Under the pieces are notes generated by a model. The model was given only the letters and a program-made list of their open reading frames with translations. It was not told the DNA's origin and did no database searches. Positions 2,617 through 11,750 of a stretch of DNA of 64,000 bases are shown here, in pieces. Source of the DNA: Escherichia coli (GTDB lineage: Bacteria > Pseudomonadota > Gammaproteobacteria > Enterobacterales > Enterobacteriaceae); assembly GCF_051903065.1 (NCBI RefSeq), contig NZ_CP178438.1. One strand, written 5' to 3'. A program made the position numbers and the translations under genes. How positions within the stretch are numbered: the first letter of the stretch is position 1; every line of letters begins with the position of its first letter.

Positions 2617-3534
2617 TTAGCTCACCAATTGCCACTGCCTTTTTTCCATCACTGGAGAACTAATCACTGACATTAACAACTCTTTCACTGCCTGTGCCTG
2701 TGGTGACAAGTTCGCTCTGGCGGGTAAATTTAATGACAAAGAGAGACTCATGGAAGGAGTGGTAATGCGTGACATCCACCCGTTTACTGCGCCACATAAC
2801 GAACGCGCGGCCGATTCAGGTAATACTGCAACGCCCATGCCGCTGGCAATCGCTGCGGTAAGCGTGGCAATAGACTCAATTTCACCAATGACTTTTGCCG
2901 TGAGTCGCCGTAGGGAAAACGCCTCATCAACACGAAGTCTAACAGCGCTGTAATCACTGGGGAGAAAGAGGTTCATTTGTGCAATAGCATTAACATCAAC
3001 GCTTTGCCCCGGGCAATCTTGAGTTCCTACCAGGAAAAGATCTTCTTTCAGCAAAGCCTGACTGGATACCCCAGCCACAGGGGAATGCTCATAAATCACC
3101 GCCATATCGAGTTGGTGATTTATCAGTTTTTCGTTAAGCACTGCACCGCTATTTTCATGAAGATAGATAACGATCTCCGGGAATTCAGCGCGAACCGCCT
3201 GTAATAAGGGCATGGTGATGGATGACGCAGCGGTTCCTGGCGCAAAGCCAATCGAGACTTGCCCCGATAATGCCTGACCAACGTTATGCACCGCCAGTTG
3301 GGCCTGCTCACACTGACGTAAAATGGCCCGCGCATGGGTATAGAGAATTTTTCCGGCGTCTGTTGGCGTAACGCCCCGTTTTGTGCGAATCAAAAGTTGT
3401 TGATTTAACTCACCTTCCAGTGTGGCAACCTGCTGGCTGAGCGCTGGTTGTGCGATATGCAATACTTCAGCAGCCTGAGTCAGGCTACCAATATCTACAA
3501 TTTTTACGAAGTATTTCAGGCGTCTGAAGTTCAT
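2617..3534 (-). CDS. nac: Nitrogen assimilation control protein Nac (LysR family)
   Basis: ORF with internal ATG at 3532-3534 giving MNFRRLKYFVKIVDIGSLTQAAEVLHIAQPALSQQV...; the track ORF is extended 10 codons upstream. Confidence 0.88.
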   Translation of the reverse strand: MNFRRLKYFVKIVDIGSLTQAAEVLHIAQPALSQQVATLEGELNQQLLIRTKRGVTPTDAGKILYTHARAILRQCEQAQLAVHNVGQALSGQVSIGFAPGTAASSITMPLLQAVRAEFPEIVIYLHENSGAVLNEKLINHQLDMAVIYEHSPVAGVSSQALLKEDLFLVGTQDCPGQSVDVNAIAQMNLFLPSDYSAVRLRVDEAFSLRRLTAKVIGEIESIATLTAAIASGMGVAVLPESAARSLCGAVNGWMSRITTPSMSLSLSLNLPARANLSPQAQAVKELLMSVISSPVMEKRQWQLVS

Positions 3535-3586
3535 GTTGCCTCCGGTTTTTAAGAATCGGCCCAAGTGCCGCCATTACTTACAACCA

Positions 3587-3606
3587 GATTGCAAGATGCT
3601 TGCCAG
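3587..3606 (-). promoter_or_regulatory. Candidate sigma-54 (-24/-12) promoter of nac
   Basis: Minus-strand reads CTGGCAAGCATCTTGCAAT, i.e. TGGCAA-N5-TTGCA, a close match to consensus TGGCAC-N5-TTGCA, about 50 nt upstream of the nac start. Confidence 0.5.
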
Positions 3607-3860
3607 TTTTATTTTGGCGTTGATGTACAAGCTAACCAACTGTCAAATAAGAGATTATGATAGATTCGTCATTTGCTCCTTTAATCAGCTGTCGCGTTCC
3701 CCTGCCCTATAAAAGGAGGGTATGCACCACGATGGTTCATTACCCAATAAGATTGAAAGCTCACCACTTTGTTGAAATTGACAGCAAACAAACAAAAAAA
3801 TGCATTTCACCCTTTGACATCACCATGCACTGCCATTAATATGCGCCCCGTTCACACGAT

Positions 3861-3936
3861 TCCTCTGTAGTTCAGTCGGTAGAACGGCGGACTGTTAATC
3901 CGTATGTCACTGGTTCGAGTCCAGTCAGAGGAGCCA
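3861..3936 (+). tRNA. asnV: tRNA-Asn (anticodon GTT)
   Basis: Identical 76-nt tRNA-Asn sequence to the copy at 1452-1527. Confidence 0.93.
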
Positions 3937-3991: not shown

Positions 3992-4924
3992 TTAAAACAT
4001 CTGTCTTGAACCAGAACTAATTTGCACAGGCATTCCCGATCGACGTTGCAACGCAGCATTTGCGCGATTCACATCAACTTCTTGCCCGTTGATAAACGCC
4101 CGCAAAGATGGGGTTACCGGCAATGGCACTTTTCGGTCAGACTCATATTCTGCACGATTGCGCGACAACGGCTCATGAACTTCCAGCCAGTTCGAGCCAT
4201 CTGGTTCAGTGGTGTATTTTACTGGCTGGTCGATAATTTGCACACGCGTCCCAACAGGAACATTATCAAACAGATATTTGATATCGTCATTGCGCAGACG
4301 AATACAGCCCTGACTTACCCGAAGTCCAATACCAAAATTGGCATTGGTACCGTGGATGGCATACAACCTGCCAATATAAATCGCGTACAGCCCCATGGGA
4401 TTATCGGGCCCCGCAGGAACAAATGCGGGCAAACTCTCCCCTCGTTTCGCATATTCGCGCCGAGTGTTCGGCGTTGGCGTCCAGGTTGGAGCTTCTTGTT
4501 TACGTTCAACGGTAGTCACCCAGTTACGCGGGGTTTCTCGCCCAGCCTGGCCGATACCAATAGGAAAGACTTCCACAGTATTACTGTCTGGCGGGTAGTA
4601 ATAAAGACGCATCTCAGCGACGTTAACCACAATCCCTTTACGAACAGTGGCGGGCAAAATCAGTTGCTGCGGAATGGTGAGTTGTGAGCCGGACTTCGGC
4701 AAGAAAACATCAACGCCCGGGTTCGCTTCCAGCATGTTACTTAACCCTTGCCCGTATTGTGCGGCAAAAGTCTCCAGCGGCTGGGTATTGTGATCAGGAA
4801 CAGTTACAGTAAGCGACTGCCCCACTAAACGGCTACCCTCTGGAGGTAATGGATAAGTTACCGCCAGGCTAGTATGGCTGGCAAAAAGCAGAGCAAATGA
4901 GCAAAGAATATTTACACGACGCAT
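3992..4924 (-). CDS. ldtA: L,D-transpeptidase (YkuD/ErfK family), signal peptide
   Basis: Translation [21 protein letters not shown]... with the catalytic region ...[20 protein letters not shown]...; lies beside cobT. Confidence 0.85.
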
Positions 4925-10583: not shown

Positions 10584-11750
10584 TCAGGCCTTATGGTGGA
10601 AATAATCACTCAGGCGAGAAAACATGCTGCCTTCCCCGACAGATTCCAGGGTAACCAGCGGCCAGTGCGCCACCTGTTTATCACGGTCGTAAAGTTCAAT
10701 TTCCCCTACCCGCTGATGGGCGCTAATTGGCGCGGTGAGCTCTTTACCATCAAGGGTATATTTGGCTTTGATATGTGGAATTTCGGCTTTCGGTAGTACC
10801 ATCCAGAACTCTTGTTCTGTTCCCAGGGCGATATTTTCTTTATCGCCATACCAGATGCGTTCCGTACCGACCTTTTTCCCACGGTGCAAAATTTGCACCG
10901 TAGTAAAGTTTTGTTGCCCCCAACGCAGTAATTTTCTTGCCTCTTCCTCACGACCTTTTGCGCTGTCAGCCCCCATTACCACTGCAATGAGACGACGCTG
11001 CCCATCTACAGCCGAAGCAATGAGATTAAACCCGGCACCAGAAGTATGACCCGTTTTCAGGCCGTCAATATTCATGGTTTTATCCCACAATAACCCGTTA
11101 CGGTTTTGCTGGGTGATACCGTTCCAGGTGAGACTTTTCTCACTGTACATATGATAAAACTCGGGCTCGCCGTGGATGATAGCGCGAGAAAGCACAGCTA
11201 AATCATAAGCCGAGCTATGCTGGCCAGGTGCATCCAGACCATGCACTGTTTCAAAATGCGTATCCTTGAGATGCAGCTTCTCGGCATAGTTGTTCATCAT
11301 TTCAACAAACTGCCGTTGCCCACCGGCAATATAGTCAGCCAGAGCAACACAAGCGTCATTTCCGGAATCAACAATTAAACCACGGCTTAAATCACGTACC
11401 GATACGCGATCGCCCTCTTTCAAAAACATCAGTGAAGAACCGACAAACACCGGATTATCTTTCGCCCACGCATCGCGCCCCACGGTGACAATATCGTCTG
11501 GCGTAATGCGATGACTATCGATAGCACGATCCACGACATAGCCCGTCATCAGCTTTGTCAGGCTGGCGGGATTGCGCTGTTGATGCTCATTACCCGCGGT
11601 GAGGATCTGTCCGGTGGTGTAATCCATCAGTACCCAGGACCCGGCATGAATCTCTGGAGGCTGAGGTGAAAAAGGAATGTTTTCCGCCGCAAAACCAGAC
11701 GATAAGTTAAAAACGAACAAAGAAGCAGCAATAATAAGACGGCGTTTCAA
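10584..11750 (-). CDS. dacD: D-alanyl-D-alanine carboxypeptidase (PBP6b)
   Basis: Signal peptide and the penicillin-binding motifs SLTK, SGN and KTG are all present in the translation; probable TTG start. Confidence 0.9.
   Translation of the reverse strand: MKRRLIIAASLFVFNLSSGFAAENIPFSPQPPEIHAGSWVLMDYTTGQILTAGNEHQQRNPASLTKLMTGYVVDRAIDSHRITPDDIVTVGRDAWAKDNPVFVGSSLMFLKEGDRVSVRDLSRGLIVDSGNDACVALADYIAGGQRQFVEMMNNYAEKLHLKDTHFETVHGLDAPGQHSSAYDLAVLSRAIIHGEPEFYHMYSEKSLTWNGITQQNRNGLLWDKTMNIDGLKTGHTSGAGFNLIASAVDGQRRLIAVVMGADSAKGREEEARKLLRWGQQNFTTVQILHRGKKVGTERIWYGDKENIALGTEQEFWMVLPKAEIPHIKAKYTLDGKELTAPISAHQRVGEIELYDRDKQVAHWPLVTLESVGEGSMFSRLSDYFHHKA

Follow-up and report, generated by a model that had tools for sequence, protein, structure and literature searches.

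The nac-asnV intergenic region

The window, by which we mean the whole stretch of 64,000 nucleotides analysed here, is part of an E. coli chromosome and displays the gene order cbl-nac-asnV-ldtA-cobTSU. The 1.9-kb segment around the nac promoter, with annotated cbl, nac, tRNA-Asn and ldtA, is matched in 5,424 of 5,426 complete E. coli genomes. Between nac and the divergent gene asnV lies a spacer of 326 nt (3535-3860), and its comparison with that of K-12 MG1655 revealed a single base difference, at 3618, which is located 12 nt upstream of the sigma-54 element and outside every element listed below (on the nac strand, G in the window and A in K-12). Since the two spacers are otherwise the same, binding data obtained in K-12 can be transferred to the strain of the window, and published positions were converted by subtracting 2056423 from the U00096.2 coordinate. 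The features considered are the following.

2617-3534, minus strand: nac coding sequence, 305 amino acids plus stop, encoding a LysR-type nitrogen assimilation control regulator (annotated by RefSeq on identical DNA and in K-12)
3535-3578, minus strand: 5' leader of nac, with the Shine-Dalgarno sequence GGAGG at 3543-3539 and a non-conserved in-frame TTG at 3564
3579, minus strand: A at which nac transcription is predicted to start; downstream distances are 19 nt from the motif centre and 12 nt from the C of the GC
3590-3606, minus strand: sigma-54 (RpoN) -24/-12 promoter element of nac, CTGGCAAGCATCTTGCA, recognized by sequence, matrix score, ChIP-seq identity and conservation
3647-3661, minus strand: Nac autoregulatory site, ATCATAATCTCTTAT (ATC-N9-TAT), centred at 3654, that is -75, between enhancer and promoter
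3703-3719, no strand assigned: probable second, low-affinity NtrC site, CCTCCTTTTATAGGGCA, centred at about -132 and degenerate in E. coli
3723-3739, no strand assigned: NtrC (NRI) enhancer site of high affinity, reading TGAACCATCGTGGTGCA on the nac strand, with one mismatch; its centre is 3731, that is -152
3861-3936, plus strand: tRNA-Asn gene (asnV), divergent from nac

The -24/-12 element and the start of nac

The initial annotation had placed a near-consensus sigma-54 promoter, TGGCAA-GCATC-TTGCA on the minus strand, about 50 nt upstream of nac. The minus strand from 3606 to 3587 reads CTGGCAAGCATCTTGCAATC, and upon re-reading the motif was recovered at 3605..3590, in agreement with the coordinates originally given; the distance is also a fair one, as 56 nt separate the 3' end of the 17-mer CTGGCAAGCATCTTGCA from the A of the nac ATG (3534) and the predicted leader measures 45 nt. 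The GG (3604-3603) and GC (3592-3591) dinucleotides are exactly 10 nt apart, the arrangement found within TGGCAC-N5-TTGCW in members of this promoter class. Relative to TGGCAC-N5-TTGCA the element carries one mismatch, an A instead of the consensus C at -22, and no other sequence of the 64-kb window comes within one mismatch of this consensus.

In order to score the element, a log-odds matrix was derived from 133 sigma-54 ChIP-seq sites, which correspond to the 135 motifs in Tables 1 and 2 of Bonocora et al. 2015 after removal of the nac site and of one other site located inside the window. The matrix score proposed earlier as a check turned out high: the 17-mer reaches 16.5 bits, for a maximum possible of 22.4 and a median of 14.4 among bound sites, and is the top score on both strands of the window, followed by a runner-up of 14.5 bits. 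Its score falls within the range of sites bound in vivo: it would take 19th place among all 133 bound sites, and 10th place when compared with the 41 other sites that are intergenic and in sense orientation. The motif by itself is not significant window-wide: 2.0 one-mismatch matches to the consensus are expected per shuffled window, and in 200 dinucleotide shuffles scores of at least 16.5 bits occurred 0.43 times per window and in 31% of the shuffles. For the 326-nt spacer, read on the nac strand, the expectation for a match of this score is about 0.001, and the runner-up inside the spacer displays 4.8 bits.

The same 17-mer has been found occupied in K-12. Site OS19 of Bonocora et al. 2015 (PMC4591121) is the identical sequence, on the minus strand and assigned to nac, with a ChIP-seq peak at 2060018 (FAT 24), a motif centre at 2060021, a published PSSM score of 11.669 (on a scale of the authors' own), a distance of 45 bp between the predicted start and the nac start codon, and the flag 'C', which denotes experimental confirmation in EcoCyc; in the window, the motif centre corresponds to 3598 and the predicted start to 3579. 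A gSELEX study likewise reports both an RpoN holoenzyme peak and an NtrC peak in the nac/asnV spacer. Occupancy by the sigma-54 holoenzyme is thus taken from published ChIP-seq and gSELEX data together with sequence identity to K-12, and not from an experiment of our own. Regarding function, Bonocora et al. 2015 (PMC4591121) chose nac as the positive control for nitrogen-limited induction, and the gene is described as being off in ammonium and induced about 60-fold once the Ntr response is on. Moreover, the nac core promoter was activated through sigma-54 in hybrid promoters and by NtrC when placed under synthetic enhancers. Published ChIP-seq, SELEX and expression data have shown the occupancy by sigma-54, NtrC and Nac and the nitrogen-limited induction. 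The presence of a sigma-54 promoter is borne out by the in vivo-bound, EcoCyc-confirmed K-12 site, and the known NtrC/sigma-54 dependence cited in the initial annotation fits the reporter data, in which the activity of the core promoter depends on both.

The conservation of the element was assessed by scanning one genome per species, which yielded 80 loci encoding Nac (79-98% identity), all from Enterobacteriaceae. TGGCA and TTGCA are invariant in all 80 orthologous regions, which align to the 17-mer as a gapless block, and the only variable positions of the 17-mer are its first base, -22/-21 and the spacer bases. Columns that carry more information in the ChIP matrix are also the better conserved ones (Spearman 0.79, p = 2e-4), in agreement with the contact pattern of sigma-54, and conservation averages 1.69 bits/column over the 17-mer, compared with 0.53 for the 30 nt preceding it. 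The 171-nt stretch bounded by promoter and enhancer is unusually variable within E. coli, 1,619 of 5,416 records being only 90-95% identical; in the aligned strains the elements themselves are spared and the differences are located between them, most of them in 3662-3702. This segment, which extends from the weak NtrC site to the Nac site, also varies more between species than any other part of the spacer (0.49 bits/column). A separate observation concerns E. coli AR13438 (locus L084), in which an IS3-family insertion lies just after GGTTAG, at the equivalent of window position ~3631. The insertion is located between the Nac site and the -24 position, so that the NtrC enhancer and the Nac site are kept without the adjoining sigma-54 promoter.

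Transcription of nac is predicted to start at 3579, a position obtained by the rule of Bonocora et al. 2015 (PMC4591121), or standard -12 spacing, and the EcoCyc 'confirmed' flag as quoted there. The literature searched, which did not extend to the primary nac promoter papers, contained no mapped nac transcription start. The leader from this start to the ATG would be 45 nt long, equal to the distance in K-12, and predicted leaders range from 43 to 49 nt across species, with 36 nt in Pseudocitrobacter. The promoter had also been invoked in favor of the ATG over a 10-codon-longer ORF. Such an ORF does exist, beginning at the TTG (2617..3564), and the choice of the ATG was right; the argument from the promoter does not stand, because the predicted start lies upstream of both TTG 3564 and ATG 3534 and hence cannot discriminate between them. 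What identifies ATG 3534 as the start codon, on comparative sequence evidence, is of a different nature. GGAGG precedes the ATG by 4 nt, and the conservation of the columns of this Shine-Dalgarno sequence is 60-100%; the 80 orthologues of the nac product can be aligned from residue 1, and the N-terminus MNF/LRRLKYFV is found at this ATG in every one of them. The columns of the TTG are conserved at 40%, under 10% and 90%, so this codon is not maintained, and several species have a stop in the upstream frame within 4-13 codons. The RefSeq start of nac is likewise ATG 3534, giving 305 amino acids.

Upstream NtrC and Nac sites

A search for NtrC sites at 3650-3780, the region in which they had been anticipated, located one at 3723-3739. 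Nowhere else in the 64 kb does TGCACC-N5-GGTGCA occur with one mismatch or none (0.20 expected), and when matches to the NtrC consensus in the 80 species are aligned on the promoter they form a sharp peak at -152. The EcoCyc NtrC site for nac, centred at 2060154 (Aquino et al. 2017, Table S1, PMC5217608), converts exactly to window position 3731, and the NtrC ChIP-seq peak of the same study, at 2060143, 11 bp from the EcoCyc site, converts to 3720. The sigma-54 element is thus accompanied by a conserved upstream NtrC palindrome, at -152, which coincides with the EcoCyc site and the ChIP-seq peaks. Brown et al. 2014 assigned a 59.6-fold NtrC ChIP-seq peak to nac-cbl; its interval, 2059941-2060021, corresponds to 3518-3598 in the window and covers the promoter, not the enhancer, which fits either limited resolution or looping and does not locate the NtrC site.

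The adjacent segment at 3703-3719 is probably a second NtrC site of low affinity. With three mismatches allowed, the frequency of TGCACC-N5-GGTGCA is no higher than chance, so that the E. coli sequence taken by itself gives no basis for calling weaker NtrC sites; in fact, in this species the segment matches the consensus poorly, in 2 of 6 positions of the left half and 4 of 6 of the right half. The comparison across species points to a site nonetheless: the segment forms a conserved island (mean 1.37 bits/column versus 0.49 in the next segment), and a lower peak of NtrC-consensus matches in the 80 species, at -130 to -132, lies over the conserved palindrome TACCCC-TTAT-GGGGCA of other genera. 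In Kluyvera the better NtrC site is the one at this second position, TGCACCGTGAAAGTGCA. The enhancer of K. aerogenes nac reportedly consists of one high-affinity and one low-affinity NtrC site, an arrangement with which the degenerate second position in E. coli would agree. No IHF site (WATCAANNNNTTR, at most one mismatch) was found between enhancer and promoter, therefore looping assisted by IHF is not indicated.

Between the enhancer and the promoter lies the Nac site, in which AT(C/T)-N9-TAT, at 3661..3647, is kept across the species of the 80-species alignment. The EcoCyc Nac site for nac, at 2060077, corresponds exactly to 3654, and the Nac ChIP-seq peak, at 2060104, falls at 3681, 27 bp from the centre of the site. 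An occupied site of the ATA-N9-TAT type is therefore positioned where autorepression of nac would require it, and binding of Nac at this place may be the means by which repression is exerted.

Regulation at the locus and other sites of the window

Taken together, the element is almost certainly nacp, the sigma-54-dependent promoter of E. coli nac, served by an NtrC enhancer about 150 bp upstream. We propose that sigma-54 RNA polymerase would bind 3606..3590 as a closed complex unable to start transcription alone. Under nitrogen limitation NtrC-P would oligomerise on the enhancer, at the strong site 3723-3739 and probably also at the weak site 3703-3719, contact the closed complex via DNA looping and open it by ATP hydrolysis. 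Transcription would then proceed from near 3579 through a 45-nt leader, with a strong Shine-Dalgarno sequence, to the ATG at 3534, and Nac, upon binding ATC-N9-TAT at -75, may damp its own synthesis. Looping and anti-activation by Nac are both described for nac of Klebsiella aerogenes, and it is by analogy with that system, and with the established behaviour of the family, that they may be expected to operate here; the exact start site and the occupancy of the second NtrC site are likewise to be read as predictions.

Binding of sigma-54 does not by itself imply transcription. Bonocora et al. 2015 (PMC4591121) stress that promoter function may be lacking in many of their 135 sites, and the nac start at 3579 is a prediction; one may hypothesize that the site is never productive, like many intragenic ones, and that nac is transcribed from another promoter. 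The element is, however, intergenic and in the right orientation, with a predicted start 45 nt from an ATG preceded by a Shine-Dalgarno sequence, and has an NtrC enhancer at the canonical distance. A consensus scan detected no sigma-70-like promoter on the nac strand of the spacer, in which the sole good sigma-70 match is the asnV promoter, on the opposite strand. Moreover, nac RNA increases under nitrogen limitation from the position of the element, the isolated core promoter drives reporters via sigma-54 and NtrC, and the core bases are invariant in 80 species, all of which makes an unproductive site very unlikely.

Still less probable is a functionless match to the consensus arising by chance. 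The values obtained for shuffled 64-kb windows, about 0.4 such scores or 2 one-mismatch matches in each, would allow for it somewhere in the window, but hardly in the spacer on the nac strand (~0.001 expected); the site is bound in vivo in K-12, and its core is invariant in 80 of 80 species while the flanking columns drift. It is the conservation across 80 species and the published ChIP-seq data that rule out a chance match. Equally negligible is a plus-strand hairpin terminator formed by the inverted repeat GCAAG-ATG-CTTGC (3591-3603) and the T-rich run that follows it, which a consensus scan flags as terminator-like, for it would consist of no more than 5 pairs around a 3-nt loop, no plus-strand gene ends there, and the pairing is lost in many orthologues (e.g. 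CTGGCATTCATATTGCA and CTGGCAAGCAAATTGCA) while the -24/-12 bases are fixed and no compensatory changes that would keep the stem are seen across species; the repeat follows from the GGCA.../...TGCA symmetry of the sigma-54 consensus, and the hairpin was discarded as such a by-product.

The promoter nacp, its NtrC site and its Nac site are already known from EcoCyc and ChIP-seq, and in biological terms nothing new is described here. The nacp of E. coli K-12 (Muse and Bender 1998; EcoCyc; OS19) has the same 17-mer, on the same strand and at the same 45-bp distance to nac, and the same centres of the NtrC site (2060154, or 3731) and of the Nac site (2060077, or 3654); the window represents another E. 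coli strain, which departs from K-12 by the base at 3618 and in nothing of substance. The nac locus of K. pneumoniae (L077) displays the same architecture as the window, with CTGGCAAGCAAATTGCA as the promoter element, a 46-nt leader, an NtrC palindrome at -152 adjoined by TACCCC-TAAT-GGGGCA, and ATC-N9-TAT between enhancer and promoter. It differs from E. coli in the spacer bases of the 17-mer (AA against TC), in the two mismatches of its first NtrC site and in its second site, which is a better palindrome than that of E. coli. The model NtrC/sigma-54 promoter, E. coli glnAp2, shares with nac the -24/-12 element (TTGGCACAGATTTCGCT) and the upstream NtrC palindromes, and the two are alike in activation by looping without IHF. 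In contrast to nac, with its one strong site, glnAp2 has two strong and several weak NtrC sites (five EcoCyc centres), and it lacks the autorepressor site that nac carries; the nac enhancer has been described as weaker than that of glnAp2, firing only at higher NtrC-P. The addition made by the present analysis is a modest one, namely a footprint in 80 species which shows that the promoter, the strong NtrC site (-152), a weak site (near -131), the Nac site (-75) and the tRNA-Asn gene in divergent orientation are all conserved in Enterobacteriaceae, as is the spacing of this whole architecture. The result also confirms that a first-stage reader, given raw sequence, can recognize a genuine sigma-54 promoter together with its enhancer.

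The divergent arrangement of tRNA-Asn and nac is found in 72 of the 80 Enterobacteriaceae species, the remaining loci being mostly cut by contig ends, and in nearly all of those 72 the distance from the end of the tRNA gene to the nac ATG is 307-336 bp (loci L002-L081). The asnV promoter, on the plus strand, is of the sigma-70 type, TTGACA-17-TAATAT followed by a GC-rich GCGCCCC discriminator. Upstream of it, at 3760-3790 within the stretch 3760-3842 that holds both, lies a strongly conserved island whose core, ACAGCAAAC, recurs upstream of asnU and asnW. Owing to this recurrence the island was rejected as a further regulatory site of nac, and it is probably an upstream activating region of the tRNA promoter. 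Relative to the asnV start, the nac sites at -152 and -75 lie upstream by about 120 to 195 bp and are adjacent to this region, and in the supplement of one dataset asnV is at 0.42-fold after Nac induction. We may speculate that so compact a spacer couples both promoters, with NtrC or Nac lowering tRNA-Asn or with factors of the tRNA promoter bending the nac enhancer; we consider such coupling improbable. If true, NtrC or Nac might reduce tRNA-Asn transcription in nitrogen starvation.

Other sigma-54-like sequences were noted in the window. The sequence CTGGTCGATAATTTGCA, at 4226-4242 on the plus strand and antisense inside ldtA/erfK, is the weak sigma-54 ChIP-seq site IA16 (FAT 1; Bonocora et al. 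2015, PMC4591121) and scores 10.0 bits on the 133-site matrix. Within 10881-10901, the minus-strand sequence ACGGTGCAAATTTTGCA scores 14.5 bits and corresponds to IS25, a sigma-54 site already known inside dacD; being a near-palindrome, it also scores 13.9 bits on the plus strand. The third best score in the window, 14.2 bits, belongs to CTGGCACGCTAAACGCA, at 1198-1214 on the minus strand and sense inside yeeO, a 17-mer absent from the high-stringency ChIP-seq list. At 1447-1452, by the K-12 annotation, the start codon of yeeO is 4 nt from the 5' end of the divergent tRNA gene asnU, and consequently the asnU promoter must be located within the yeeO coding sequence.
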